The notes below the pieces were generated by a model. That model searched no databases and had not been told where the DNA came from. It saw only the letters and a list, made by a program, of their open reading frames with translations. Positions 12,455 through 29,956 of a stretch of DNA of 64,000 nucleotides are shown piece after piece (position 1 is the first letter of the stretch; the number at the start of each line of letters is the position of its first letter). The translations under genes and the position numbers were made by a program. The stretch spans positions 1,088,001-1,152,000 of the forward strand of contig CAWFQB010000001.1 of assembly GCA_963817895.1 (NCBI GenBank). Reading direction: 5' to 3'. The DNA is from an uncultured Chthonomonadaceae bacterium (lineage in GTDB: Bacteria; Armatimonadota; Chthonomonadetes; Chthonomonadales; Chthonomonadaceae).

Positions 12455-12542
12455 GATTTGGCCGCGAATGTACGCGAATACACGCGAATGGGATGCAACT
12501 TAATTCAGGGAAGGTTTGTCTTCAACTTATTAAATGCTCTTT

Positions 12543-12644
12543 GTCTTGAACCATGATTTTACATGATTAGGATGATTAACATGATGAACTGTCCTCCTCA
12601 ATCATGGTAATCACCAAAGTCATGCCTGATCATGGTTTGAGACA
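12543..12644. repeat. ~100-bp palindromic intergenic repeat (MITE/REP-like), copy 1
   Basis: Ends GTCTTGAACCATG...CATGGTTTGAGAC; similar to 29759-29856. Confidence 0.7.
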
Positions 12645-14589: not shown

Positions 14590-14645
14590 AAAGTGAAAAG
14601 TCCTGCGGCGTAGCCGGTGTGCAGAACACACCGGCAACACCGCAG
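14590..14645 (-). terminator. Probable intrinsic terminator of the pilin gene
   Basis: Hairpin CTGCGG..GCCGGTGTG/CACACCGGC..CCGCAG followed on the minus strand by CTTTTCACTTT. Confidence 0.6.
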
Positions 14646-14666
14646 AACAGGAACACAGGTCGAGAG

Positions 14667-15062
14667 TTACTTGTTGTCCTTACCCGGCTCAAAGGTACCG
14701 GCGGCATCGGGATCGGGCGTACACGACACCAGGAAGGAGCCGGCAACGCTTCCGGCAGCAATCACGTAGGTTTCGCCGCTGGGGCCGATGGGCGGGGTTT
14801 GCAGGTCCGGCTCATTGGCCGTGCTGACCGCCCCGTAGTACTTCGAGTAGTCCGCTGGCCGGTCTTTGACATAGGCGGCCTGCACCGCGTTGGCAACGGT
14901 TTGCATGTTGGCGCGGTTGGTCTTGATGCGGCTGTCTTTGACCGCGCTGAGGTACAGCGGGAGGGCAACCGCCATCAGGATGGACAGGATCAGGGTGACA
15001 ACGAGCAGTTCGACGAGCGTGAAGCCGCTGACCTGGCGGCGAACGGAGGATGTGTGAACCAT
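14667..15062 (-). CDS. Type IV pilin / pseudopilin-like prepilin
   Basis: G^FTLVELLVV N-methylation motif plus hydrophobic helix; RBS AAGGAG before ATG at 15062. Confidence 0.9.
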   Translation of the reverse strand: MVHTSSVRRQVSGFTLVELLVVTLILSILMAVALPLYLSAVKDSRIKTNRANMQTVANAVQAAYVKDRPADYSKYYGAVSTANEPDLQTPPIGPSGETYVIAAGSVAGSFLVSCTPDPDAAGTFEPGKDNK

Positions 15063-15548
15063 GGTGCTGAACTCCTTAAGTCCGTGTGTGCCGGCTGCAA
15101 GGCCGGGTTGATTAGCGTGTGTGTGCTTGGGTAGGGCGTTCAGAACAGGGCTTTCAGATAAGCCTGCGCAAAACGCCGGTGTGAGACAATCGCGCAAAGG
15201 CGGAAGAGATACTGCCGCTGTGCGCCTTACGATTCGATTGCGCAAATGCAGCGCAACGAGGCCGCATTCTTTTCAGCTTCGGGGCCGAGGCTGCGCGGTC
15301 AGGCTGCCGGATGGAGGAACCTGAACGCGGCGGGGTTTCTCCCACAACACCGGGGTACGCGCTTAATGACGCGACACCGGCAGGGGAGAAGATTAGTATA
15401 AGCTTCGTTTGTCATTATACATCTAGATCGGCAGTGCGTCAATAGAAAAATAGCTGACAAAACACACTGGAAATATTTCTATCCGCCGTTTTGATGTGAA
15501 CATACCCTGAGTACTTCAGTTGAGAGTGCAAAGTTTTGGCGGGAACAG

Positions 15549-15611
15549 CAAAACGCCTGAGTCGCCATACTCTCCTGCGTTCAGGCACGGGAGTATAGCG
15601 ACTCAGGCGTT
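15549..15611 (-). terminator. Long hairpin terminator downstream of the tRNA-like copy (likely the original host tRNA-Val 3' flank)
   Basis: AACGCCTGAGTCGC...GCGACTCAGGCGTT then TTTT on the minus strand. Confidence 0.65.
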
Positions 15612-15620
15612 GTAAACGGA

Positions 15621-15715
15621 TGGGCAGTACTGGATTCGAACCAGTGACCTCTTCGGTGTGAACGAAGCGTTGCTCCGCAGCGTCTAACGACGCGCTTCGC
15701 AGGAGCCAACCGCCC
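15621..15715 (-). ncRNA. tRNA-Val(CAC)-like sequence with expanded D-arm at the integrase-side att junction
   Basis: GGGCGGT TG GCTC [CTGCGAAGCGCGTCGTTAGACGCTGCG] GAGC AAC GCTTCG TTCACAC CGAAG AGGTC ACTGG TTCGAAT CCAGT ACTGCCC A; acceptor, anticodon and T arms intact; expression unknown. Confidence 0.7.
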
Positions 15716-15799
15716 GACAGAATTTCCTTCCTCTCCTCACAAATACAGCGCTTCGTGTGTCTGTTTATCCTCCTCAATCCAACGATGAGGATGGACACA

Positions 15800-16798
15800 A
15801 TGGCAAAGACAACGCTTCGTTCTTCGACTTCGCACAGCGCTTCGTGCGACCTTAGCCTCAGCGACCTGAAACGCTACGGGGACGCCTGGTTACAGGACAG
15901 CAAGTATCGGCAACTGTCCGAACAAACCCGCTACAATCGCGGCCTGCTTATCGAGAAACTGCAATGGTGGCTGCAACAGCAGAAATGCGCCGTCTGTGGT
16001 ACGCTGGAAATCAAGCAATTCTTGGCCTATGTGGGCAATGGACACAACGAGCAAGGCGGCAGGTGGGGAAATGCCCAACTCACTCGCGCCGTGAGGCCTC
16101 GCACGGTCAAGGACTATCACGGCAACCTACGCACCTTCTTCAAGTATCTGGTGGAGGAAGGCTATCTGGACGTTTCGCCAATGGAGAACGTCAAGCCGCC
16201 TGTCTCTCGCGCTGACCAGATTGTACCCTTCACACAAGAGCAGGTCAACGCCCTGCTACAAGCGGCAAAGACCGGCAATGCTCCCCTGCGCGATGAGGCG
16301 CTGATTCTGTTCCTGATGGATGGCGGCGTCCGTGCCAGCGAGCTATGCAGCCTCACCATGCAGGATATAGACGTGGTAGGCAAGCGGGCTACGGTGCTAG
16401 GCAAGGGGAACAAACATCGAACCGTGTACTTCGGGCGCGACACTTCCCGCGCTGTGATGCGCTATCTCAAAACAGAGGAACGCAAGCCCTCCGATCCGGT
16501 TTTTAAGTCCGAACGGGGAGAGGCGCTTACCCGGTCTGGTTTGCTCCAACTGATCCACAGGCTCGGACGTGCCGCCAAGATCGAAGCAACGCGCTGCTCA
16601 CCCCACACCTTCCGCCATACCTTTGCCGTCGAGTTCCTACGGGGAGGGGGACAGGTCTTCGCGCTCCAGCAAATCCTCGGACATACTCAACTTGGCATGA
16701 CACAGAAGTACGTCGCCATTGCTCAGGCTGACGTCCAGAACCAACACCTGCAATTCTCTCCCGTCGAGCGCCTACGGAACAAGGGAGGGCGCAAATGA
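15800..16798 (+). CDS. Tyrosine recombinase/integrase (XerC/D-like, no obvious arm-binding domain)
   Basis: GVRASEL (R), GKGNK (K), HTFRH, LGH, TQKY catalytic residues; alternative ATGs at 15785 and 15791. Confidence 0.95.
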   Translation: MAKTTLRSSTSHSASCDLSLSDLKRYGDAWLQDSKYRQLSEQTRYNRGLLIEKLQWWLQQQKCAVCGTLEIKQFLAYVGNGHNEQGGRWGNAQLTRAVRPRTVKDYHGNLRTFFKYLVEEGYLDVSPMENVKPPVSRADQIVPFTQEQVNALLQAAKTGNAPLRDEALILFLMDGGVRASELCSLTMQDIDVVGKRATVLGKGNKHRTVYFGRDTSRAVMRYLKTEERKPSDPVFKSERGEALTRSGLLQLIHRLGRAAKIEATRCSPHTFRHTFAVEFLRGGGQVFALQQILGHTQLGMTQKYVAIAQADVQNQHLQFSPVERLRNKGGRK

Positions 16799-16923
16799 GC
16801 ATCCAGCGCTACAAGTCCGGGCGCTACTGGGCTGTCTACGATGAACACGGAGAGATGATCTGCCTGTGCGTATACAAGAAGGGCGCATTAGAGGTCGTAA
16901 GAAGGTTATTAGGCTGTGATTAG
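16795..16923 (+). CDS. 42-aa small protein coupled to the integrase (candidate directionality factor)
   Basis: ATGA overlap with integrase stop; RBS GGAGGG; MSIQRYKSGRYWAVYDEHGEMICLCVYKKGALEVVRRLLGCD; below the ORF-track cutoff. Confidence 0.65.
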   Translation: MSIQRYKSGRYWAVYDEHGEMICLCVYKKGALEVVRRLLGCD

Positions 16924-17397
16924 AGGAGATTTATATCAAGCTTACTGTTGGTAGACAAACTAAGGCGTGTGATATCTATACGCCTCATGACAATTGTATT
17001 GACATGAGTATGAGGAGTGTGCTAATCTTTCTTTACTCTATCTATTAGAGGATTTAGAATAAGTGCCGACGCGGTCAGTGTTTGTCCTGTGCGGAGTAGT
17101 TTCGGTTACTATCAGAGGCTGATTCCATTCTCTGAAAAGCCTTGAAGACACTAGGATGGACTTATTCTAAAGCCTCTTAGGACTTACGCGGTTGTTGCTC
17201 ACTGTTTAGCTTTTTCGAGATAGAAGCGTTTTGGCAAAGCTGTGAACATCTGTTATTTTGTGCCTCTCACAGGTGTGCAAACAGTTCCAAAGCAAGGCTG
17301 ATGAGATTGCGCCCCTATGGTGAGCAGCAATTGCGTAAGTCCTATCTATATCAGCGTATATACTACCAGCTTGATACCAGCGTAAGGAGCCGTTAAC

Positions 17398-18222
17398 TTG
17401 AGTGATCTTCCTACCATAACAACTTACGACGCATGGGTGTTAAAAGAATTAGATATAGATCTAACCTTAGATACCCAAATAAGGCAATACGACAACGATA
17501 TTGTAACAGCTAAATCAACTGTGACGAGTCACCCGTTTTTTCAAAATTTAGCTGGTTTTGTTGAAGATTGTTGTATGGATTACAAAGATCAAGTAGGGGC
17601 AGACTTGCTCATGAACAAATTTGAACTATCAATTGTTTCTAAAACATATAAATCATCTATCAACAAAAGTTACCGAATGAACATTGTCCTCAATAAAAAT
17701 CTTCCTGGCCCTCCATCTTCTGGATGGATATCGCCCGAAAACTGGTACGAGGAACTCAACGATCTATTACGAACTCGAATAACCTGTAAGTTTATTGATG
17801 GTCCTCAATATTTATCAAATCGGCTAACCGAATATGCAGCAACGCATGGATTGGACTTAAATTTTAGGTCTCAGCAGAAAGACGGTGGCTACTATGCTTA
17901 CCACTGCTATGTCCATATTGATGTACCACTGCTAAAACATTCTGCGACTGGCCGTGTTGTATATGACGTAAAAATGTCTGTTGAAATCCAGTTAACAACG
18001 CAACTTCAAGAAGTTCTTTATGATCTTACCCATCCGATATACGAAGCGTTGAGAGTCAAACCCGAGCAGGATCCATCTGCATGGAAATGGGATTACAAGT
18101 CAGATAGATTCAAATCTGGTTATATGGGACATACTCTTCATATGCTAGAAGCAATTATTCTGGAAATCAGAGATAACAACATTACTTCGGCTAAGGTTCA
18201 GGAGAACGAAGATGTCAAATAA
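17398..18222 (+). CDS. RelA/SpoT-like (small alarmone synthetase-type) nucleotidyltransferase
   Basis: LNDLLRTRI, GGYYAYH, VEIQLTTQLQ...LTHPIYE resemble SYNTH motifs; RBS AAGGAG, TTG start. Confidence 0.7.
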   Translation: MSDLPTITTYDAWVLKELDIDLTLDTQIRQYDNDIVTAKSTVTSHPFFQNLAGFVEDCCMDYKDQVGADLLMNKFELSIVSKTYKSSINKSYRMNIVLNKNLPGPPSSGWISPENWYEELNDLLRTRITCKFIDGPQYLSNRLTEYAATHGLDLNFRSQQKDGGYYAYHCYVHIDVPLLKHSATGRVVYDVKMSVEIQLTTQLQEVLYDLTHPIYEALRVKPEQDPSAWKWDYKSDRFKSGYMGHTLHMLEAIILEIRDNNITSAKVQENEDVK

Positions 18223-19870
18223 ACATAGTATGATCCCTTCTCCAGAGGTTGTACATTTAACAACAGTATTCCGGCGAATACAGAATGGTGAAATTCGTAT
18301 ACCAGCGTTTCAACGAGGATTTGTCTGGGAAGAAGACCAGATTATCAAACTTTTGGAAAGCATTTTTAAAGGCTATCCAATAGGAAGTCTTCTGTTTTGG
18401 AAGGTGGATAAAGCAGGCGATACTGTGTTGAATGTTTTAGATGAGAGTTCTGACTCTGACAACACCCTTGTGCCTTTCCCTCATATTACACTCACATTTC
18501 CAGTAAATTATGTGTTAGATGGTATGCAGCGTCTTTCGTCGTTGTATGGGGTATTCCTTGCTGCTACAACTAACGATAGTTTTAACGTCGTTTTTGATCT
18601 GGAAAAGCGGGAGTTTATTTATGACGATCAGAGAAAGCTTGTAGCACCTCGTTTCTTGAACCTATCAGATTTATTCGCACCACGCCGCTTACTTGATGCG
18701 CAACGTTCTATGACTGAACAAGACAATGGCGAAATTTTGATTGACAGTTCCATCGAACTTCTTTCTTCGTTCCAAGAATATATGCTACCAATTGTAACGA
18801 TCTCGACAGATAATGTAACTGAGGTAGTTGAGATATTTGAAAGAGTGAATAGTACAGGCACAAAGTTGAGCAGAGTGGACTTCATGCGGGCTTTAACGTG
18901 GTCTGACGGCTTTGACCTAAATGTAGCCTTACGAAGTATTAAGGAGGATATCCTTCTTCAAGGATTTGTGTTCCCATATGAAACATTGACCAAAGTAGTC
19001 GCAATTCTGCTCGGCAAGAGTCCAACACCAACTTCAATGCTTGAACTTCGAAGTTTTTCATCCGATGATCTTCACGAAGGTGTTATGAAAGCGAAGATGT
19101 ACCTATCCGATGTAACTGGATTTTTGAGAAACGAGTTTAGTATTTACTCTTCAGATTTCGTACCGTATGAGGGGCAACTTCTCGTTTTGGTTAAATTGTT
19201 TGAACAACTTAGTTACTCATGGATAGATGACGGAACTGCCAAGCAAGTGATTTCTACTGCAAGGGAATGGTTTTGGAACACTAGTTTCAGTGAAACATTG
19301 CGGGGTAAGCCCGACGGATACGTCATTCGAGAAATACAGAGCGCAGTAAATCTTACGAAGGGTGATCTTCGTGCTTTACCTTCAAAGCTGCTGCTTGACG
19401 ATGACACACTGCGTGAACGGCGCTTTACCAAAGGCAAAGCATTGTCGTCAGCTATAGCTGCGCTATTCGCTAGTAACAAAGCACGAAGCTTAGTAACTGG
19501 TGAAGTAATACCACCAGAAAAATATATGACTGATTTCAAAGTGGAAAATTTTGAGGCGATATGTTCCCAAAAGGCAGTCCAAGCATCAACTATTCGCAAA
19601 GTTTCATCTCCAAAAGTATTGGCGAACCTTTGTGTGGTGTTGGATACGGATAGAAAGTCATATAATCCGTTTAATCCACATGCGTTACTCCTATCAGTTT
19701 ATGAACGGTTTGAGCCTGAAACAGCCGACGAAATTCTTCGATCCTTGTTTGTGGACGATCAAACGTTCTATATCCTTAAAGGTGGTGACGAAATAGATTT
19801 TCTGAGACACCGCTCTGCTAATATGCTTATGGCTGCTGGAAGAGTCAATCGAGACACACGCACGTCCTAA
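18212..19870 (+). CDS. DUF262 (GmrSD N-terminal-like) domain protein
   Basis: IPAFQRGFVW, YPIGSLLFW, VLDGMQRL, IFERVNSTGTKLS. Confidence 0.88.
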   Translation: MSNKHSMIPSPEVVHLTTVFRRIQNGEIRIPAFQRGFVWEEDQIIKLLESIFKGYPIGSLLFWKVDKAGDTVLNVLDESSDSDNTLVPFPHITLTFPVNYVLDGMQRLSSLYGVFLAATTNDSFNVVFDLEKREFIYDDQRKLVAPRFLNLSDLFAPRRLLDAQRSMTEQDNGEILIDSSIELLSSFQEYMLPIVTISTDNVTEVVEIFERVNSTGTKLSRVDFMRALTWSDGFDLNVALRSIKEDILLQGFVFPYETLTKVVAILLGKSPTPTSMLELRSFSSDDLHEGVMKAKMYLSDVTGFLRNEFSIYSSDFVPYEGQLLVLVKLFEQLSYSWIDDGTAKQVISTAREWFWNTSFSETLRGKPDGYVIREIQSAVNLTKGDLRALPSKLLLDDDTLRERRFTKGKALSSAIAALFASNKARSLVTGEVIPPEKYMTDFKVENFEAICSQKAVQASTIRKVSSPKVLANLCVVLDTDRKSYNPFNPHALLLSVYERFEPETADEILRSLFVDDQTFYILKGGDEIDFLRHRSANMLMAAGRVNRDTRTS

Positions 19871-19993
19871 TGGACAAACCAGATAAAGATTGTACTATGG
19901 CGGGGTTCCGAGTGTTGAAAACACCCGTCTGAGTGGCGTTCCGCCAAGCGTCCTACGGACGCGGGATTGTACAATGTTCAAGTGGTTTGTCCA
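19871..19993. mobile_element. MITE-like element, GNA-hairpin family copy A
   Basis: TIR TGGACAAACCA...TGGTTTGTCCA flanked by TAA on both sides; internal hairpins GGCG-TTC-CGCC and GCGTCC-TAC-GGACGC. Confidence 0.7.
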
Positions 19994-20023
19994 TAAGTTT
20001 ACTATTCTGCGTTTGAATACTGA

Positions 20024-20278
20024 TCAGTTATCCATTTCTTTCAGCAAGTTTTCATACCTTTGTACGAACTCCACTAACCCAACCCCTAGTGCCTGACAGA
20101 CCTCCCGCAATTCAGGGAGGTCTAGTATTCTTTCTCCCGACTCGAACCTGCTGACGAACGACTGCGGTTTGCCGAGACGTTTGGCAAGGTCAACCTGCGT
20201 CAGACCAGCATCACGCCGAACCTGACGAAGTAAAGATTGTAGTAATTCCTGCTGAGGCGTGTAGAGAGACTTTTGCAC
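20024..20278 (-). CDS. XRE-family HTH transcriptional regulator
   Basis: RRDAGLTQVDLAKRLGKPQSFVSRFESGER. Confidence 0.9.
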   Translation of the reverse strand: MQKSLYTPQQELLQSLLRQVRRDAGLTQVDLAKRLGKPQSFVSRFESGERILDLPELREVCQALGVGLVEFVQRYENLLKEMDN

Positions 20279-20374
20279 CCCTCATTGTAGAAACTACGGT
20301 CGCAATATGCAGGAATTAGATATTTTCAGGAGAATACTAGGCATGAGCAGATTGCAACACACAGGAGGGGAATA

Positions 20375-21502
20375 ATGCCGACACTTGGAGAGGTCAAAGA
20401 GCAGATCAAGCGTGCTGATGGAAAAGATACTTTCCTCACTTGGAGAGAAGTACAGGACTTGCCGAATGTCCTAGCTGATGGCGAGACTATCCAGAGGGTA
20501 GCACAAGCAGGGTATAATGGCGTGACAGGTATGCTGTTGGCGACAGATCAGCGCCTTATCTTCATCAAAACGAACCTTCTGAACAAAGCAATGGTCCACT
20601 CTTACCCCTTCTCCAACATTGCTTCTCTCAACAGCAAGCCGGGTTTGCTATTCACTACTTTCAACATCGGCTTGTCTGACGGCGATTCTGTCATAATCCA
20701 GACGATTGCAAATGTCGTGGCACAGCGCATCTGTGACTATGTTCAGCCTCGTATCGGCGTCACAAGTCCGCCACAGACAGTCCAGAGCAGCAATATGACT
20801 TCCGAACTGGAACGATTAGCGAATTTACGGCAGCAGGGACTTTTGGATGAGCAGGAGTTTGCAGATGCCAAACAGCAGATCATAGCGAAACAGCCTAGGT
20901 TTCCACCCGCCGACATACGCTTGCCTAGTCTCCAGACGCCACATCAGCCCGTCTCTCCACAAAACCATACAACACAACCTGCTACGCCTTCACCTACGCC
21001 GCAAAGGACTCTAAAAAAGAGTACGATAAACAATATCTTTACTGCATTAGTGCTTTCTCCCATCTTCTGTTTCGCAGCGTATGTCATGATTTCTGACATG
21101 CGCGGTTCCTCGCAGACCAATATGACAATGAGTAGATCGTCTACGACCGCTACAACAGAAACGCCTGCTCCGGCTCCTGCTGAACCCGTAAAGCCATCGA
21201 AACCTGATCCAAAAGACAGTCCGGCCTTCAAGAAGAAGTTTGCGGCGTTGCTCGATAACCTGCGAGGTATCAGCGGTGTGACCGATGCAAAACAATTTGA
21301 CTGGGATCATTCTATGGGAACAATCAACGTATACGTCCCGGTCGGTACGAGCAAAGATCAGGCACGGGAAATAGCATCCGAGGCGTATCGCGAGTTTGTA
21401 CTGGTGCGGACGCCGTTCTATGGGGAAGATGCTGATAATTGTCAGATCGGAATACGGGATACAGATGAGCGTCTAATTCTTACGCGTAATAACCTGTGGT
21501 AG
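20375..21502 (+). CDS. Membrane protein with bacterial PH-like and SHOCT-like domains
   Basis: GMLLATDQRLIF (PH-like); ELERLANLRQQGLLDEQEFADAKQQII (SHOCT); one TM helix; RBS AGGAGG. Confidence 0.75.
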   Translation: MPTLGEVKEQIKRADGKDTFLTWREVQDLPNVLADGETIQRVAQAGYNGVTGMLLATDQRLIFIKTNLLNKAMVHSYPFSNIASLNSKPGLLFTTFNIGLSDGDSVIIQTIANVVAQRICDYVQPRIGVTSPPQTVQSSNMTSELERLANLRQQGLLDEQEFADAKQQIIAKQPRFPPADIRLPSLQTPHQPVSPQNHTTQPATPSPTPQRTLKKSTINNIFTALVLSPIFCFAAYVMISDMRGSSQTNMTMSRSSTTATTETPAPAPAEPVKPSKPDPKDSPAFKKKFAALLDNLRGISGVTDAKQFDWDHSMGTINVYVPVGTSKDQAREIASEAYREFVLVRTPFYGEDADNCQIGIRDTDERLILTRNNLW

Positions 21503-21522
21503 AGGTAGACTTCTACAATTCA

Positions 21523-21561
21523 AAGGGAGGTTCTAATCCAGCAGGTTAGAACCTCCTTTTT
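21523..21561. terminator. Probable bidirectional intrinsic terminator
   Basis: GGAGGTTCTAA...TTAGAACCTCC followed by TTTTT, between convergent genes. Confidence 0.75.
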
Positions 21562-21575
21562 CCCGTACACCGCCA

Positions 21576-21923
21576 TTACATAAGGCTCTGGTATCTGCCT
21601 GTTCCGGCGACGGCTTGCAGAACGTCGTTCGCCTGTGCCTGTGAGCGCAAGGCAAGTGTCTGCTTACGGAGTGCCTGCGCTTTCTGCCAGAGTTCTTTCG
21701 TGTTACGGTCTACCCGTAGAATCGCCTCATGTGGGTCTGTAAGTTCGCGTACACGTTGGTACGTAGCTTCGGCTATACGATGCGTTTCCTGTCGAACCTT
21801 CGGAAGTTCCCTCTGTGTCGCGCTATTCAGGCGTTGTGTCTGCGCTTGGAGCGTCGGTAGCAGCGCGTCCAGTTCGGCTTCGATTTCTTCGTAGTTCATC
21901 GTTCGTTCTCCTGTGTCTAGCAA
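21576..21923 (-). CDS. Hypothetical coiled-coil protein
   Basis: ORF with heptad-like helix; likely true start at the MNYEE ATG after AGGAG. Confidence 0.55.
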   Translation of the reverse strand: MLDTGERTMNYEEIEAELDALLPTLQAQTQRLNSATQRELPKVRQETHRIAEATYQRVRELTDPHEAILRVDRNTKELWQKAQALRKQTLALRSQAQANDVLQAVAGTGRYQSLM

Positions 21924-22219
21924 TGCGGGTAAATAGGGCAGCAGTGTGTTTAAATTGGTTCTGCCCTGAGTCTGTCACAGAACACGTACAAACGCACATC
22001 TGATGTCATATCAATCACCCCTGTCATATCGCTCTATTTCATGATATACCCCTCCCTCATGATATACCCTTCCACTTTCGCATGATGCCTGAGTGCTTCT
22101 ATTAGACGGCTAATTTTATAAAAGTCGCGGATGATGGAAACTGCCATACAGGAGGGAGACCCTTCCCCCTTATAGCCCCCTCTCTTGGAAATGAGGAGGG
22201 GGAGGTTACGTTTTCGTTC

Positions 22220-22876
22220 TTACTTGCTTACGGATACGCGGAGTACCTTCTGGTCGAGGAGTATCTGCATACCTCTGGCAAACCCATACAGATACGCCTC
22301 TGAAGACGGTTCCGCTTTGCAGTTGTACAGGTCGCCGTTCGTTCCGTACTGTTGATCTGCTGCGAGACGCAGATGATCGCGCATCTTCTGGACAGCCCTA
22401 CAAGCGCGACTCAGAGTAGCGACTGAGCGCTGACTACACGGCACCTTCTGCAATAGCCTGTGTAGTGCCAGAAGACCTTTCAGCAGGCAGAGTGTCTCGG
22501 CGCTTAGGCGCTTGTGGAGGTCACGCGGAATGCCTATCTTGCGTCCAGTAGGAGGTTGCACAAGGATGTCCTCAACGGCATAGGCCCATAAGACGAACTC
22601 TGTTGTCCCGATAGCCTGATCTTGGTAGGGCATTTCCGTGTCCCAGTGTGCCGCTTCGAGGTCACAGTACAGGTTGCTCAGTTGCAGGCTTGTGAGCCGA
22701 CTCTGGCGGATAGGAACCGATACGCCCGACAGGACATTCGTGAGCGATTCTGCAAGGCTGCCCATGCTCTGAGACAGCGCGAGAATCTCTTGTCGCAGGT
22801 GTTTCTTCGGTTTGGTTGTCGTCAGAGATATTTTCTTGAGAGTTGGTGTCATGCTCTGCTTGCTCCTATATCGCAA
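22220..22876 (-). CDS. Hypothetical protein
   Basis: 218-aa ORF co-oriented with the replication module. Confidence 0.55.
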   Translation of the reverse strand: MRYRSKQSMTPTLKKISLTTTKPKKHLRQEILALSQSMGSLAESLTNVLSGVSVPIRQSRLTSLQLSNLYCDLEAAHWDTEMPYQDQAIGTTEFVLWAYAVEDILVQPPTGRKIGIPRDLHKRLSAETLCLLKGLLALHRLLQKVPCSQRSVATLSRACRAVQKMRDHLRLAADQQYGTNGDLYNCKAEPSSEAYLYGFARGMQILLDQKVLRVSVSK

Positions 22877-22901
22877 TTATTGCGATACATTCCATATGCG
22901 C

Positions 22902-23258
22902 TCACGAGGAAAGGCAGGCCTCATAAGCCTCTGGCGCGTTTGTCTGTCTCGGCATGTCCAAGAGCCTTACCAGACAAATCGCCGCTTGCAGATCAGGTTG
23001 GCGGGTGTATACGCGGACAGTCTCGCCTGTGGTGTCGTCCTGTTGGTCGAGGTACTCTCCTCGCGCCAGATAGATAATCCCATCGAGAATATCAGGCAGA
23101 TGATCGGTGACACGCTTGCGAACACGGAGAGCGACATTCGCGAACCGCTCACGTTTTGGAACTGGGCCAGAATTGAGTGCTGCCCCTGCCCGAATGTGAA
23201 TAGGCCTCGTTTCTCGTGATTCTAGAGTTTGCATAATCGTACCTTTCCTGTGTGTCAT
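22902..23258 (-). CDS. Hypothetical protein
   Basis: 118-aa ORF; RBS AGGAAAGG before the MQTLE ATG. Confidence 0.5.
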   Translation of the reverse strand: MTHRKGTIMQTLESRETRPIHIRAGAALNSGPVPKRERFANVALRVRKRVTDHLPDILDGIIYLARGEYLDQQDDTTGETVRVYTRQPDLQAAICLVRLLDMPRQTNAPEAYEACLSS

Positions 23259-23430
23259 GGGGTATGTTAGGGTATGTTAGGGCATGTTTCGGCCTCCCCT
23301 TACCCCGGTTTTATAAAATTATAGTTTGTGTTTTCACCTTATGACGGAAGTTGAAACATACCCCCTCTAACGGAGTGTCTCAGTTAATCGCAGGTTTCAA
23401 AGAGTATCGTGCGCCATTTTTCGTTGGATG

Positions 23431-23506
23431 GCGTCTTTAGCGTTTTAAGCGTCCAAAGGTTAGAAGATATAAAACGCTTAAAACGCTAAAGACGCTAGAG
23501 CGCAAT
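23431..23506. repeat. Iteron-like 9-bp repeats (AAAACGCTT/AAGACGCTA) in inverted arrangement; candidate replication origin
   Basis: GCGTCTTTAGCGTTTTAAGCGTC ... AAAACGCTTAAAACGCTAAAGACGCTAGAGCGCAA. Confidence 0.65.
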
Positions 23507-23513
23507 CGGTTTA

Positions 23514-25859
23514 TCATTTTTCCTCTTCCTCTGTATCATCCTCATGGATGATCGTCCAGAACTCGCGAGGCCGTCCGTCCGTCTCCTCCTTTGTGCATGT
23601 TGCTAATCCATTTCGCTGGAGAAGCTCTAATGCTGTTGTCAGACGCGCCGTTGTGATATGCTTTTGGAATACGTCGTCGCGTATGTCCTTTCGACTCATG
23701 CCCTCTGTTGAACGCAGAGCAGATAGGACTTTCTCTGAATCCTTGTTGCCAAGAGAAGTGCCAAAAATGAAGGCAGCCGAGGCGTCGCAGTATTGCCAAA
23801 CGGCGAGAGCCGCCTTGAGATGTGCGGTGCATATCGTTTCCGACTTGTCCAACAGTGCGTAGAGCATAGATAGGCGAAGAACCTGAGCTTCTGCGCGGGA
23901 GGTAACATGACCGAGAACTCCCTCCCGATCTTCTGTGAGTGTCGGGTAAATTTCGCACCATAAAGCTCGTGCGCCCTCATCACGCTTAATCTCACCTGCG
24001 GATGAGGCAAAAGCAATTACTTCATGTAGTACCTGCCGCAGCGAAACAATATCCGACTCTGGAAGGTTTCCACCTTCTGGAAGTAGCTTTGACCGTTCAG
24101 AGCAAATCCAGAGGAAACGGTTGGCGAATCCGTTGAATAGATTGCTGCCTTTATTCAAGCATTGAAGCAACTCCTCTCTCGTGATATGGCCTACGATAGA
24201 GATATGAGCGTCTGTTGCGCAGTCGGGATTTGTCTTGGTAAGGTTTTTCAGGTTGCCACTGTCCCAAGCTTCTCTCAACACGGAAGATAGTTTGTTTGTG
24301 TCGCGTTCCATAACTTGCAACACGCCTGCGAATTCCGTTTCCTTATCGAGTAGGCGCTTATCGCTCACGCCGGGAACCATCACGGCTTCGTATTCCTTCT
24401 TTCGCTTATCGTAAATATGTTCTGTTCGATCATCCCTCACATGGTAAACAAGACCTTCGCCAGATGCCAGACCTCCCTTGATACAGGTCTTTACCCATCC
24501 GGTGCTGCCATCGTCTTCACTGAAAAGAGCGAGTATGAGGTCTAGACCTGTGCCTTTTCTTCCTCGTGAGGACTGCCCGACTGTCGCGCAAAATAGGTTA
24601 GTGTGATGTTTGGTAGCGCCTACCTTGAAGAAGGCCTTTCGGCCTATTCGGTTGCCGAAAGCCACTAGAAACTGCACAAGGAGAGCCGTCGAGTCGGCTT
24701 CTGTATGCGGCGCAAGTGTCTTGAGAACTTTTCCTACCAGACCATAATGCGCTTCTTCTGGTAGTGCCTCAGGCCATATCGAAATCATTTTTCTATTGCG
24801 CTCTAGCGTTTTAAGCGTCTTTAGCGTTTTATCTCCTTCGCCTATTTGCTCCTTTGTTTGACTTTGGACGCTTAAAACGCGGTGAGGAGAGTAGAAATCT
24901 GCTTCTCTTTTCCCCTCGTAAGCTTTGTATATCGTGCCACGCAAATACGTCGTATCTCCTCGTGCTGAATCGTACTTTTCACGGAATAGAGCGGATGCGT
25001 ACATGAGGCGCTCAACCTGCTCGTGTCCATCCTTTCCACAGTAGAAGGCGAGCTTACTGCATAGAGCAAGATCGGCGCGGCTGTCGTCGTCGTCATAGTC
25101 GCTAATGTCGCCGTCGTCGAATAGCCTCTTGAACTTGTCCCCGTTCTTCTCGTTCCTTGCCAATTTAAGCACAGCCATATCGGGGATTAGATCGCGCTCA
25201 CGAGCAGGGAAACTTTCTGAGCTACCGGCAATCAAATCCTCGACGACGCTCTCTCCTGAGAGTTCCTTGTACAGCGTCTGGAATTCATCGGTTCGCTCTT
25301 CAACGGTTGCCGGAGTGCCAGGCCAACGAACGCCCGTTACAGTAAAGTATCGCGCCTGTGTGTACATCTCGACTATGATGCCACCACAACTCCCCTTGCG
25401 CCCTTTGTGGTTTCCTTTAACTTTCACGAAGATGTGCAGGCCTGTACCAGACGGGCTGACTTCGGTGTAAGAGTCAAGCCGATTGACGATTTCCTGTGCT
25501 TTAGGACATATCTTCTGTCCTGTTGCGTCAATGACTTTATCGAGATCGATGCCCACGATATCATTCTCTTCGCTGAAGACGTAACCTATCCCCTCGTAGG
25601 TATGCCGGGACAAAGCTTGCTGCGCCTTCTCGAATGTCGCCCAATCTGACGGTTCCATAGTGGAAACTGCCCCTCCGTGTAGGGCTGAGTAGGGAACCTT
25701 CGTAGTTTTTTCTCCTCGTGTTTCTCGTTGCCACCCTACCCAAGCCTTGTGGTTTTTTAGTTCGTCAGGGACACATTCGTATCCATCTGTTTTAGGCATC
25801 AAAGTTCGCACTTGTCTTTTTACGGTCGAAATTTTAACCATTATCTGCGCCTCTTTCAT
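23514..25859 (-). CDS. Primase-polymerase (AEP/NrS-1-like) fused to a DUF3987/YfjI-like helicase and C-terminal winged helix
   Basis: GIGYVF, VGIDLD, YTEVSPSGTGLHIF; SRADLALC; GQSSRGRKGT; LREAWD; GFANRFLW. Confidence 0.85.
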   Translation of the reverse strand: MKEAQIMVKISTVKRQVRTLMPKTDGYECVPDELKNHKAWVGWQRETRGEKTTKVPYSALHGGAVSTMEPSDWATFEKAQQALSRHTYEGIGYVFSEENDIVGIDLDKVIDATGQKICPKAQEIVNRLDSYTEVSPSGTGLHIFVKVKGNHKGRKGSCGGIIVEMYTQARYFTVTGVRWPGTPATVEERTDEFQTLYKELSGESVVEDLIAGSSESFPARERDLIPDMAVLKLARNEKNGDKFKRLFDDGDISDYDDDDSRADLALCSKLAFYCGKDGHEQVERLMYASALFREKYDSARGDTTYLRGTIYKAYEGKREADFYSPHRVLSVQSQTKEQIGEGDKTLKTLKTLERNRKMISIWPEALPEEAHYGLVGKVLKTLAPHTEADSTALLVQFLVAFGNRIGRKAFFKVGATKHHTNLFCATVGQSSRGRKGTGLDLILALFSEDDGSTGWVKTCIKGGLASGEGLVYHVRDDRTEHIYDKRKKEYEAVMVPGVSDKRLLDKETEFAGVLQVMERDTNKLSSVLREAWDSGNLKNLTKTNPDCATDAHISIVGHITREELLQCLNKGSNLFNGFANRFLWICSERSKLLPEGGNLPESDIVSLRQVLHEVIAFASSAGEIKRDEGARALWCEIYPTLTEDREGVLGHVTSRAEAQVLRLSMLYALLDKSETICTAHLKAALAVWQYCDASAAFIFGTSLGNKDSEKVLSALRSTEGMSRKDIRDDVFQKHITTARLTTALELLQRNGLATCTKEETDGRPREFWTIIHEDDTEEEEK
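24797..24881. repeat. Second iteron-like cluster inside the primase-helicase linker
   Basis: TTGCGCTCTAGCGTTTTAAGCGTCTTTAGCGTTTTAT ... TTTGGACGCTTAAAACGC; inverted copy of 23431-23506. Confidence 0.65.
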
Positions 25860-26046
25860 AAAAGTGAGCGGGACGGGCGCATTCGTCCCGCTCTGTTCTG
25901 GGGATCAACCAGAACACTGTTGTTGCTTTTTCAGAGGAAACCTCTACTGCGCCAGCAACTTGCCCAACGTGTATTTATATCTACTATTAGTATCCCTCCT
26001 TTTCATGGTTTACTCTGATAATCTAACAATAATATATTATTAGATT

Positions 26047-26388
26047 TTAGTTCAGATCAGATTTAGCACCTCTTGGGATGACTATGCTCGGATTGAGTTG
26101 TTGGTACTTGGCAATGTCCATCATGACTTCAGCCAAGACAAATTTCCCCAAAAACTCCATTTGATCCGTCACCGTCAGGAATTGTTCTTGCAGGCGAGTT
26201 CCGTAGGTGGTAATTACGTCGTCGCCGTAGGAACAACTCCGGTTTTCTAACAAGCGATGCAACTCACGCATTGCTTCTGCGTTTTCTCGAAAAATGCTAA
26301 TGGCGCTTCGCATGTGCTTACTGATGTTCTCCAGCATTTCCACCTTGTTGCTATTCACCAGCACTTCCATCTTGTTCTCTTGAGACAT
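26047..26388 (-). CDS. Hypothetical protein
   Basis: 113-aa ORF, RBS GGAG. Confidence 0.5.
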   Translation of the reverse strand: MSQENKMEVLVNSNKVEMLENISKHMRSAISIFRENAEAMRELHRLLENRSCSYGDDVITTYGTRLQEQFLTVTDQMEFLGKFVLAEVMMDIAKYQQLNPSIVIPRGAKSDLN

Positions 26389-26480
26389 GGTTTTCTCCGA
26401 TCTCTTCTGAGTCGAATCGAGCCAGTTATGGCTCAGAAATCATAACAACCTTTTTATATTAAAATTGGGGCCATAAACGC

Positions 26481-26522
26481 AAAAAGGCCGAGACGATTCA
26501 CAATTAATGAATCGTCCCGACC
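26481..26522 (-). terminator. Intrinsic terminator inside the island end, downstream of tRNA-Val
   Basis: Minus strand GGTCGGGACGATTCA-loop-TGAATCGTCTCGGCC-TTTTT. Confidence 0.7.
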
Positions 26523-26772
26523 ATGATTTTCAGTTGTTCTGTAAAGGCTAAATTTTAATATAAAAAGGTTGCAAGATTATTGTACAGTAGCCATAGGAGT
26601 TTGTCAAGCAAAGTTTTGAAAATCGGAAGAAACAGATGGAACAGCGGTTGAGAGGACGCCCAAGACAGCGCTTCGTATGGCATAATAAAGGACGTAGGCA
26701 GCGCTTCGTTCGCGCAGTTCTACGCCCTTTAGGAAGATAGACAGACACAGATTTGTGAGGAAGAATCGGAGA

Positions 26773-26844
26773 TGGGCAGTACAAGATTCGAACTTGTGAC
26801 CTCTTCGGTGTGAACGAAGCGCTCTACCACTGAGCCAACCGCCC
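26773..26844 (-). tRNA. tRNA-Val(CAC)
   Basis: GGGCGGTTGGCTCAGTGGTAGAGCGCTTCGTTCACACCGAAGAGGTCACAAGTTCGAATCTTGTACTGCCCA: canonical cloverleaf, anticodon CAC, CCA not encoded. Confidence 0.95.
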
Positions 26845-27015: not shown

Positions 27016-29772
27016 ATGAAGTTCGCCGCATGCCTGTGCTTGCTGTTCACCCTGGCCGCGCCCATTGTTGCCGCGCGGAACTCCGTTTCCGGGGAGGTTT
27101 CTCTGATGAAGTCGGCTTCCATAACATCGGCTACAGGGAAAGTGTCTGCCCTGAAACCTGTTTCTCTACGATGCGAATATGGAGAGGACGGTGTGGATAC
27201 GCCTGCCCCGCGCCTGAACTGGCTGCTTGCTGCCGACAAACGGGCGCAGAAACAAACCGCTTACCAGATTCTGGTGGCTTCCAGTGACACACCCCTGGCA
27301 CAGGGGCAGGGCGATTTGTGGGACACGGGCAAAATTGGATCAAGTTCGAGCGGGCATATTCTGTACGCGGGCAAACCGTTGCAATCCGGCCAGTATTGCG
27401 CGTGGCGGGTGCGGGTATGGGACCAGAATGATGCCATGTCGGAGTACAGCCCTGCCGCGCATTGGACAATGGGACTACTGCATCCCGGCGACTGGCGCGG
27501 CAAGTGGATCGGGCGTACAACGGATACCGCCTATCAGCCCGCGCCCTATCTGCGCCATGCGTTCGCGCTAAAAGGAAAGATTGCGCGGGCAACCGCTTAT
27601 GTGTGCGGTTTGGGATATTACGAACTGCATTTGAACGGGCAGAAAGTGGGCGACCACGTTCTTGATCCGGGCTATACGCGCTACGACCGCCGCGCTCTGT
27701 ACGTCACTTACGACGTTACGAAAGCATTGAAAGCCGGTCAGAACGCGGTTGGTATCGTATTAGGAACGGGTTGGGAGAACGTTCATACCCGCGCCGTGTG
27801 GTACTTCGACCGCGCCCCGTGGAGAGCCGCGCCCAAAGCCCTGCTGGAAATGCGCGTCGAGTACGCGGACGGCACAACGGAAAACATCGTCACGAACGAA
27901 AACTGGAAAACTTCAACCGGCCCGATTGTGTACGACAGCATTTATGGCGGGCAGACGTATGACGCGCGATTGGAACTGGCCGGATGGGATAAACCCGATT
28001 ACGACGACAGCCGTTGGCAAAACGCGCTTGCGGTGGCTCCTCCCGGCGGCAAATTGACATCACAATTTTGCCCGCCGATTCGCGTCAAGACGGTTATCAA
28101 GCCCGTCAGTGTGACCGAGCCGAAACCGGGCGTGTGGCTGTTCGACATGGGGCAGAACTTTGCCGGTTGGGCGGAACTGCGCGCGTCCGCGCCGAAGGGA
28201 ACCAAAATTACCCTGCGCTATGGCGAACGTCTGGGTTCGGATGGCACTCTGGATCAATCCCACCTTGCGCAGCATCTTGTGAAAACCGAACCGCCGCAGC
28301 GATTCCAGACGGACGAGTACATCTGCAAGGGCGGGGGAACGGAAACGTGGCATGCGCAGTTCTGCTATCACGGCTTTCAATATGTGGAATTGACCGGCTT
28401 TCCGGGCAGGCCCACTCTGAATACTCTGCGTGGCCTGTTTCTTCATTCGGATGTCGCGCCGACCGCCGAGTTCGCGTGTTCCAATCCCCTGCTCAACCGC
28501 ATCTGGCAGGCAACTCGCATGTCGTACCTGAGCAACCTGCAAAGCATCCCGACCGATTGCCCGCACCGCGAAAAGAACGGCTGGACGGGGGACGCGCACC
28601 TTGCCGCCGAGTTCGGCCTGCTGGCTTTCGACAGCGTAGGCGTGTACGCCAAATGGGTCAACGATCTGGACGACGAGCAAAAAACGACGGGAGAACTGCC
28701 CGGAATCGTGCCGAGCAGCGGGTGGGGTTACGAGTGGGGCAATGGGCCGGCATGGGACAGCGCGTTCGTGCTTATTCCGCGCTACTGCTACACATACTCG
28801 GGCGATGGGCGCATTTTGGAACAGCACTACGCGGGCATGAAGCGGTACGTGGATTACCTGACCACGCGCGCAAAGGAGGGCATTGTATCCATCGGGCTTG
28901 GCGATTGGGTTCCGTTTGAAACCGAAACCCCGGTCGAAGTCACGTCCACCGCGTACTATTACCGCGACGCGCTGCTCGTCGGACTGCTGGCCGCGCAGTT
29001 GGGAAACAGTGAGGACGCGCAAAAGTACAATGCTCTCGCCGCGCAAATCAAAACCGCGTTCAACCGGCGCTTTTATCACCCCGAAACGGCAACCTACGCC
29101 AACGGCAGCCAGACCGCGTTAAGCTGCGCTTTGTATCAGGGATTGGTGGAACCGGAGAACCAAGCCGCTGTAGTGAACTCGCTCGTGGCCGCAGTGGAAA
29201 AGCGCAACGGGCATATTGACACGGGCATTTTGGGCGCGAAGTACATTTTCCACGCCCTGACGGAGGGCGGGCGGGCGGATGTGGCGTACCGGATCGCGAA
29301 CCAGAAGGACAAGCCGGGTTGGGGCTGGTGGCTGGAACAGGGCGGCACAACGCTGTGGGAAAGCTGGGGCGGCACGGATTCGCGCAACCACATCATGTTC
29401 GGCGACATCAGCGCGTGGTTCGTGGAAACCCTCGTGGGCATCACGCCGGACGCGCCCGGTTTCACCGCTATTCGTATCCAGCCCCACATCGTCGGCGACC
29501 TGACCGGCGCAAGAGCGCAACTGCAAACCGCGTCCGGCCAGGTCACAAGCGACTGGCAACGGGAAAACGGCAGCCTGCGTCTGTCCGTGGAAATCCCCGC
29601 CAACACGACCGCGACCGTTTATGTACCCGCTTCCGACACTGCCCTATGTCAGGAGGGCGGCAAACCCGCAGCGCAATCCGAAGGCGTCCACTTCCTGCGC
29701 CGCGAACCCGGCTACATCGTCTACGCCGTCGCGGGCGGCAAATACGAGTTCACCAATCGTCTTGAACCATAA
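27016..29772 (+). CDS. Alpha-L-rhamnosidase (GH78), secreted
   Basis: Signal peptide; DMGQNFAG, PTDCPHREKNGWTGD, TTLWESW, SRNHIMFG. Confidence 0.92.
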   Translation: MKFAACLCLLFTLAAPIVAARNSVSGEVSLMKSASITSATGKVSALKPVSLRCEYGEDGVDTPAPRLNWLLAADKRAQKQTAYQILVASSDTPLAQGQGDLWDTGKIGSSSSGHILYAGKPLQSGQYCAWRVRVWDQNDAMSEYSPAAHWTMGLLHPGDWRGKWIGRTTDTAYQPAPYLRHAFALKGKIARATAYVCGLGYYELHLNGQKVGDHVLDPGYTRYDRRALYVTYDVTKALKAGQNAVGIVLGTGWENVHTRAVWYFDRAPWRAAPKALLEMRVEYADGTTENIVTNENWKTSTGPIVYDSIYGGQTYDARLELAGWDKPDYDDSRWQNALAVAPPGGKLTSQFCPPIRVKTVIKPVSVTEPKPGVWLFDMGQNFAGWAELRASAPKGTKITLRYGERLGSDGTLDQSHLAQHLVKTEPPQRFQTDEYICKGGGTETWHAQFCYHGFQYVELTGFPGRPTLNTLRGLFLHSDVAPTAEFACSNPLLNRIWQATRMSYLSNLQSIPTDCPHREKNGWTGDAHLAAEFGLLAFDSVGVYAKWVNDLDDEQKTTGELPGIVPSSGWGYEWGNGPAWDSAFVLIPRYCYTYSGDGRILEQHYAGMKRYVDYLTTRAKEGIVSIGLGDWVPFETETPVEVTSTAYYYRDALLVGLLAAQLGNSEDAQKYNALAAQIKTAFNRRFYHPETATYANGSQTALSCALYQGLVEPENQAAVVNSLVAAVEKRNGHIDTGILGAKYIFHALTEGGRADVAYRIANQKDKPGWGWWLEQGGTTLWESWGGTDSRNHIMFGDISAWFVETLVGITPDAPGFTAIRIQPHIVGDLTGARAQLQTASGQVTSDWQRENGSLRLSVEIPANTTATVYVPASDTALCQEGGKPAAQSEGVHFLRREPGYIVYAVAGGKYEFTNRLEP

Positions 29773-29856
29773 TTTTTCATGGTTAGAATGATTACCATGA
29801 TGAAGACCAGCCCACTCATGGTAATCCTCAAAATCACATAAATCGTGGTTCAAGAC
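29759..29856. repeat. ~100-bp palindromic repeat, copy 2; supplies the rhamnosidase stop codon
   Basis: GTCTTGAACCA...TGGTTCAAGAC; similar to 12543-12644. Confidence 0.7.
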
Positions 29857-29956
29857 AGTGGAAGCAAGGTTGCTGTTGACAATTGGTAGTCCGTTTATTA
29901 TAATGTGCGCAGGACGAAAAGAGTATTTCTCTTAATGGAGGTTTGCAGGACACTAT

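Follow-up and report, generated by a model that had tools for sequence, protein, structure and literature searches.

The tRNA-like cloverleaf on the minus strand at 15621-15715 is the attR end of an integrated island, at which a 5′ half borne by the element meets the 3′ half of the host's own tRNA-Val(CAC) gene. The island, which spans 15621-26844 of the window (the whole 64,000-nt stretch analysed here), is an 11.1-kb, low-GC tyrosine-integrase island of an Armatimonadota family; one of its ends holds a working 3′ half and the opposite end a modified 5′ half, and it is reversed relative to its family. The cloverleaf looks like a by-product of the history of the attachment site, with a spare, decaying 5′ half, rather than a working tRNA mimic. 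We consider it probable, at roughly two chances in three, that a whole tRNA gene was captured in attP, that inversion at the arm repeats followed, and that the spare half then decayed. An island with two such halves is best read as an intermediate between 3′-restoring and 5′-restoring islands, and this element may illustrate how an island comes to use its target tRNA gene in the other direction.

The island and its two ends

GC content is 47.7% in the island and 55-56% in the flanks. The restored tRNA and the displaced 3′ part lie at the island ends in direct orientation, as a 51-nt repeat (92%), and the ends comprise the following features.

26773..26844, minus strand: intact tRNA-Val(CAC), attL, made of the host 5′ half and the element 3′ half; 70.8 bits
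26924..26952, minus strand: sigma-70-like promoter upstream of the intact tRNA; 10/12, a consensus match only
15663..15715, minus strand: element-borne 5′ half, made of tRNA nt 1-13 (15703-15715), a 27-nt insert (15676-15702), the D-stem 3′ strand, 3 extra nt and an anticodon-stem strand
15656-15662, minus strand: anticodon loop, the inferred 7-bp crossover overlap
15621..15662, minus strand: host 3′ half of tRNA-Val(CAC), attR, with the T-stem allele of same-family genomes
15552..15611, no strand assigned: long hairpin (arms of 27 nt) outside the element, immediately following the host 3′ half, found as an inverted repeat; probably the original tRNA terminator

Because the tRNA-Val(CAC) genes of same-family genomes (L002, L004, L016) share the T-stem allele of 15621-15662, we assign the 3′ half found there to the host and the 3′ half of the intact gene to the element. 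The crossover would fall within the 7-bp anticodon loop, a position taken from the relatives only, whose shortest duplications start at the first anticodon-loop base; with the crossover placed there, the cloverleaf upstream of the loop is element sequence. The proposal of the first-pass annotation that the element itself carries a 5′ tRNA-like half is thereby upheld: relative to the crossover, the 5′ half belongs to the element, and such a half is also present in sister elements. Since the host promoter, the host 5′ half and the element 3′ half already rebuild the gene, the 5′ half of the element would be spare.

The interior of the island holds the following genes and signals.

15756..15799, plus strand: hairpin over the integrase ribosome-binding site; -17.3 kcal/mol
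15800..16798, plus strand: tyrosine integrase, 332 aa, intact frame; PF00589, E 3e-38
17398..18222, plus strand: cargo ORF, 274 aa; no Pfam, PHROGs or PADLOC match
18212..19870, plus strand: GmrSD_N-domain protein, a candidate anti-phage gene; full-length match to the PADLOC candidate PDC-M55C
20375..21502, plus strand: protein with bPH_3 and SHOCT domain matches
23514..25859, minus strand: primase/helicase, replication module of a satellite-like element; NrS-1 HBD, DUF3987, PHROG 1829
26579..26607, minus strand: sigma-70-like promoter, directed into the element; 11/12, a consensus match only

The catalytic-type residues of the integrase (R178, K202, H269, R272, H295, Y304) are invariant in 25 homologs, and no separate arm-binding domain was detected in the protein. 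Iterated short repeats in both orientations lie where the primase gene ends (23431-23519) and within it (24782-24880), and form a possible replication origin. The island also contains a MITE- or REP-like element of 131 bp with 32-nt terminal inverted repeats (19867-19997), which has no Rfam match; the genome holds eight near-full copies of it (99-100%, including that of the island), and its inner part is matched partially at about 100 places.

The cloverleaf and its expanded D-arm

Folding of the minus strand of 15621-15715 reproduces the 95-nt, four-arm cloverleaf that had been described from the letters of the sequence, with a free energy of -41.4 kcal/mol (z = -3.14) that one in 200 dinucleotide shuffles attains. 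Pair probabilities are 0.77-1.0 in the acceptor and 0.93-0.99 in the extended D-stem, and most of the stability of the fold is owed to real tRNA sequence. The 5′ end of the cloverleaf lies 84 nt from the integrase ATG (15800), on the opposite strand. The description of its 5′ side proved accurate as well: positions 15703-15715 repeat the first 13 nt of the tRNA at 26832-26844 without a mismatch (13/13 nt), a 27-nt segment (15676-15702) stands in for the 7-nt D-loop, and 3 extra nt follow the D-stem. That the D-loop segment itself folds is likewise true, but its stability over its own shuffles is modest, as the D-arm with the insert reaches -17.6 kcal/mol against a shuffle mean of -12.5 and is equalled by 3.6% of 1000 shuffles. 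The reported difference between the two T-stems by two compensatory pairs is real, yet not special to the site, since the normally oriented locus L050 also shows one.

Both ARAGORN and Rfam confine their call to 15621-15693, in which the acceptor is mis-paired, and the Rfam score is 32.7 bits, compared with 70.8 for the true gene. The mimic lacks a canonical D-arm, the GG dinucleotide of the D-loop being gone with the 27-nt replacement, and its Rfam score is low. Beyond tRNA, the Rfam search returned nothing except unspecific matches to miRNA hairpins, and a promoter search of the sequence preceding the cloverleaf gave none for the mimic strand. Two further features overlap its 5′ half.

15689..15699, plus strand: the integrase motif (tRNA nt 21-30), copied in inverted orientation within the D-loop insert; 10/10, with one extra base
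15662..15673, minus strand: left core half-site of attR, matching the arm-motif consensus RCARCGCTTCGT perfectly thanks to the 3 extra nt

The inverted copy of the motif is unexpected in 2000 shuffles of the insert (p = 0.0075), which also holds a direct partial copy (p = 0.028). Given these copies, and the perfect core half-site created by the 3 extra nt, the D-arm hairpin can be explained as duplicated binding-site sequence.

5′ halves and D-arms in related elements

We collected 271 distinct integrase matches from genome, metagenome and viral collections. In a FastTree phylogeny of the integrases (SH-like support 83-88, no bootstrap), the sister group of the window's integrase (SH-like 88) is a clade of 11 members, mostly at Val(CAC), four of which (G100, G321, G373, G407) carry a 5′ half. 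The tRNA sequence at their attR starts at nt 1 in G100 and G321 and at nt 4 in G373 and G407; in G289, which is not in the tree, it starts at nt 5. All five have identical nt 5-31 and a normal D-arm. The D-loop allele of the 5′ halves in G100, G321 and G289 differs from that of the host gene, so that the 5′ half was inherited with the element. Acceptor pairing is lost and the D-arm kept in G373, G407 and G289, as decay from the far end would give. Whole-gene duplications occur in G134 and at three more distant loci (L087, L088, L091), and most attR junctions of relatives have a 3′ fragment only.

The expanded D-arm is found in none of the junctions of relatives that were compared, with a weaker, non-significant look-alike in L050 (p = 0.19). 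Its pattern is present in one of 401 genomes of the phylum, the window's own; this search was strict, specific to Val(CAC) and run with no positive control, and speaks for this exact form in the 400 other genomes. Viral contigs contain no instance of the pattern, nor did a single-protein scan of them reveal any relatives. Among the relatives examined, the expanded D-arm with its inner hairpin thus does not show the conservation with covariation expected of a structured ncRNA or tRNA mimic. The same annotation had named the lack of the 5′ half or of the D-arm hairpin in homologous elements as the observation that would count against its proposal: the hairpin is indeed lacking, but the 5′ half is not.

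The survey also returned several loci with other peculiarities. At the far junction L357 (3950-3990, G354:C5), a perfect 11-bp hairpin takes the place of the anticodon arm, and the T-arm has diverged. An inverted, damaged tRNA-Val(CAC) fragment faces an intact gene 130 nt away at L619 (G528:C625:10066-10212). Family integrase genes form convergent pairs at L292 (G330:C402), L380 (G095:C2) and L333 (G083:C1). Other inserts at tRNA-Val(CAC) belong to family f11 (L593, L595-L597, L599, L603, L605, L609, L611); most of them share a tandem short repeat in the arm, and the stretches fetched contain no match to the integrase of the window.

Arm motifs, terminal repeats and reversed orientation

A 12-nt motif resembling tRNA nt 20-31 occurs in five copies in the arms of the island, and six of its ten copies in the genome lie at the island, the core site of attR included. 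The arms are furthermore related to each other by a terminal inverted repeat.

15745..15845 (15745, 15809, 15834), plus strand: three arm motifs RCARCGCTTCGT, found as sequence repeats, two of them inside the start of the integrase gene; putative integrase-binding and autorepression sites
26665..26709 (26665, 26698), plus strand: two arm motifs RCARCGCTTCGT, found as sequence repeats, in the orientation of the integrase gene and against the tRNA
15725..15777, plus strand: terminal inverted repeat, integrase side; its score is reached by 0/2000 shuffles
26728..26770, minus strand: terminal inverted repeat, far side, partner of 15725..15777
15737-15746, plus strand: exact 10-nt core inside the integrase-side terminal repeat, the inferred inversion breakpoint

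All five arm motifs point against the tRNA. Scored out of 11, the two arms of the window reach 7 and 7 in the tRNA sense and 10 and 10 in antisense; among 19 complete relatives, the antisense motif never exceeds 8, while the sense motif scores at least 9 in both arms in 7 of the 19, the only relatives in which the 11-nt test used finds it clear in both arms. Judged by eye, the arm motif of the relatives varies with the target tRNA. In 14 of the 19, one arm repeats the other in inverted orientation (p ≤ 0.05), as is the case in the window.

The orientation of the integrase gene sets the window apart in the same way. Among the 133 integrase loci of at least 230 bits, 116 are co-directional behind tRNA sequence, 12 have no tRNA within 420 nt, 3 are too short and 2 (the window and G058) diverge from the nearest tRNA piece. 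The first-pass description of the mimic as antisense to and directly upstream of the integrase is therefore true at this locus but does not hold as a general layout; of the 118 close loci that have tRNA sequence upstream, 116 are co-directional, and the window is an exception that a flip probably produced. The 138 weaker integrase matches include 16 divergent cases, which mostly come from one distant group, except for G085 and one or two others. The distant group (L096, L098, L102, L107, L110, L111, L119, L122, L178, L184, L191, L192, L196-L198, L202), whose named records are Chloroflexota, combines 5′ fragments with a divergent integrase; a promoter-like stretch ahead of the tRNA is conserved in it, and integrase-like genes often come in twos.

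The interior of the island thus appears to have been inverted between the terminal inverted repeats that are typical of the family, and flipping it at the 10-nt repeat core restores, as a reconstruction, the usual order of parts. We found neither an un-flipped copy of this exact element nor an empty site (of the two same-genus genomes, G001 has a non-syntenic tRNA-Val(CAC) and G002 has no match), so that the inversion and its breakpoint are reconstructed. Four sequencing runs of DNA or unknown type (shares 0.05-0.20) gave short pieces only, with no junction-spanning read, excision joint or inversion joint, a result that weighs neither for nor against the inversion.

Two other elements have reversed layouts; like the window, they stand apart from each other in the integrase tree. 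G085 is a 49-kb element at tRNA-Ser(CGA), whose integrase diverges from the intact gene and whose five arm motifs are all antisense. At its far end, nt 1-43 of the host gene run into a decayed 3′ half, with which the acceptor can still be closed. It is the mirror of the window, with a working 5′ half and a decayed 3′ half. In G058, at tRNA-Pro(CGG), the 5′ half beside the integrase is reversed and damaged and includes 17 nt of host flank.

Evolutionary scenario and alternatives

In the scenario that we favor, the ancestor would have resembled the sister elements, with a whole tRNA gene captured in its attP. An inversion of the interior between the terminal inverted repeats would then have brought the integrase arm next to the 5′ half. 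This spare half may subsequently have gained its 27-nt insert, partly as inverted and direct copies of the neighboring integrase motif, and the resulting palindrome would be what folds. The junction itself would work as double-stranded DNA, with the core half-site and the arm motifs bound by the integrase. As the flip would sever tRNA read-through, the integrase is expected to be quieter when integrated and to depend chiefly on far-arm expression once circular, for which a weak plus-strand promoter match at 26738-26766 (9/12) could serve. The arm inverted repeat might free the ribosome-binding site in the circle: among the 8 of 19 elements with a located start codon, the site was more open in 6 (p = 0.078). 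After excision, a perfect tRNA-Val bearing the T-stem of the host is predicted to remain.

A different view is that the tRNA-like fold is selected: attP, as RNA or single-stranded DNA, would close an acceptor stem whatever the D-arm, in the service of processing an attP-integrase transcript or of recombination. The region 24-60 nt upstream of the loop was compared for complementarity to the cognate acceptor strand across 51 of the 58 non-full junctions, excluding the window locus and six distant ones; four reached p ≤ 0.05, with a non-significant combined p of 0.14. When the region was widened to 14-60 nt, a choice made after seeing the data, and two junctions were added, 12 of 53 junctions had a Watson-Crick complement of at least 6/7, whereas the two control windows placed upstream gave 3 and 1 of 53 (combined shuffle p = 0.022). 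These tests exclude near-whole halves by design, treat kin that are not independent and may include junctions of other element types; about eleven Val(CAC) fragment junctions with no integrase match nearby stand outside the 53, and by eye none of them has a 5′ half. A 10-bp spacing among the positives (p ~0.1 by rough hand calculation) supports no claim. The enrichment speaks for selection, as do the matches of G061 and G046 to host-specific acceptor alleles, although in both the acceptor strand is, by eye, part of a longer arm inverted repeat. Within the window's 13-member subclade (support 96), 8 of 9 known far junctions have a piece of a 5′ half or a complement of at least 6/7, the G061 junction having been assigned across two contigs. 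Acceptor closure is also kept in the decayed half of G085, and at the window the D-stem is still closed around the insert and the acceptor strand is intact, neither of which pure decay requires. Against this, the complement is absent from 41 of 53 junctions, including L442 and L443, the sisters of the positive L444; the acceptor is broken in G373, G407 and G289 even though the D-arm is kept; the mimic strand has no detected promoter; and in the flipped layout, a transcript from the far arm would read the cloverleaf antisense. On balance, we regard a selected fold as unlikely. About as doubtful is the broader idea that the attP of the whole family is selected for tRNA shape, with an element-borne acceptor strand that tracks the host allele, a D-arm that is free to vary, a fold (RNA or single-stranded DNA) that gates integrase expression or recombination, and a two-halves attP that permits repeated flips of orientation.

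The reversed layout could also have arisen by another route, either from a 5′-restoring ancestor or by backward integration at the near-symmetric anticodon arm, with the 3′ half gained later; the 5′ half would still be a relic. Reversed 5′ halves lie beside the integrase at two other places in the tree (G085, G058) and in the distant Chloroflexota group, and the three Armatimonadota cases all hit C34 isoacceptors (Val-CAC, Ser-CGA, Pro-CGG), which are often dispensable, so that damaged intermediates could survive. However, 45 of the 116 normal loci also have C34 targets, which are thus frequent in any case, and the nearest integrases are all normally oriented, several of them already with both halves, so that a single inversion suffices. 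Such a route therefore seems quite improbable to us. An assembly artefact or a chance fold is the least credible explanation, and we give it very little weight. The genome is 81% complete in 14 contigs, and no public run spans the junction, but the contig is 1.7 Mb long, the two copies of the inverted repeat differ at many positions, the 13-nt match is in register with a closing D-stem, and two other genomes have parallel layouts.

Relation to known systems

Islands in tRNA genes usually rebuild the gene from a 3′ half and rarely from a 5′ half. Zhao and Williams reportedly described, in 2002, recombination of elements with the 5′ part of tRNA genes under the name 'reversed target orientation'. 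That elements use the 5′ part of tRNA genes is known, and the available text of PMC6563490 cites Zhao and Williams 2002 for them. The element resembles such 5′-restoring elements in having an element-borne 5′ half next to a divergent integrase gene, but its 5′ half is non-canonical and has no detected promoter, and the gene is restored by the element-borne 3′ half. Where 5′-restoring elements rebuild the gene from a 5′ half and a promoter, opposite a bare 5′ fragment, the window has a canonical gene at the other end.

Islands with an anticodon-centred attP are known as Islander class A, and 5′ fragments occur in 159 of 3919 Islander islands, according to the accessible part of PMC4383910. The island of the window shares with class A, as outlined there, a tyrosine integrase, a tRNA restored at one end, a 3′ part displaced at the other and a duplication that starts from the anticodon arm. 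It differs in that a 5′ half borne by the element completes the displaced end and that the integrase gene lies at this end, divergent from the tRNA. Remnants of tRNAs at attR can be miscalled as tRNA genes, as in the 90-bp Gln-TTG example in the consulted portion of PMC9897764. The cloverleaf is similar to these in being a tRNA-like call at a displaced end with a defective acceptor or D-arm, but in that portion the remnants are partial duplicates, whereas the window has 13 nt of the true 5′ end in register. As a practical point, such junctions get miscalled as extra tRNA genes.

The integrases of ICEKp1, ICEclc and ICEEc1 undergo state-dependent promoter switching. For ICEKp1, the available sections of PMC13023037 describe expression from the tRNA promoter via leader hairpins when integrated and from a far-end promoter in the circle, and propose pairing between the far end and the leader stem-loop in the circle. 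The normally oriented relatives share the layout of tRNA, leader hairpin and integrase with this type. In contrast to this type, the window would have lost tRNA read-through by the flip, and the elements are small and non-conjugative, with an integrase of another group.

In the literature searched, which left subscription papers and supplements outside its scope, we found no account of reversed elements with both halves or of tRNA mimics beside island integrases; the reports of tRNA-resembling motifs next to island integrases that the first-pass annotation mentioned did not turn up there either. Nor did that literature yield an account of a switch between the use of 3′ and 5′ halves. The family offers plausible stages of such a switch: whole-gene capture in normal orientation (G100, G321, G373, G407), a flipped island with a decaying 5′ half (the window) and a flipped island with a decaying 3′ half (G085). 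Together, these stages make up a concrete, testable route between 3′- and 5′-half use. If the fold were functional after all, it would represent a structured-nucleic-acid control on a tyrosine integrase, of which we found no description.

Further observations in the window and the genome

In the left flank, positions 14600-15190 have a 96% identical copy at G000:C2:673245-673834 and overlap an ORF with an N-methylation motif. Related palindromic repeats lie downstream of genes in both flanks, at 12542-12644 and 29759-29857. An exact 17-nt match to the anticodon loop and the following bases is located inside a coding frame at G000:C7:18890-18906 and is a possible secondary target. ARAGORN calls a tRNA with a CTA anticodon at G000:C11:90528-90599. 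Finally, an array of 16 tRNA genes directly adjoins a tyrosine recombinase gene at G000:C4:226866-230044.
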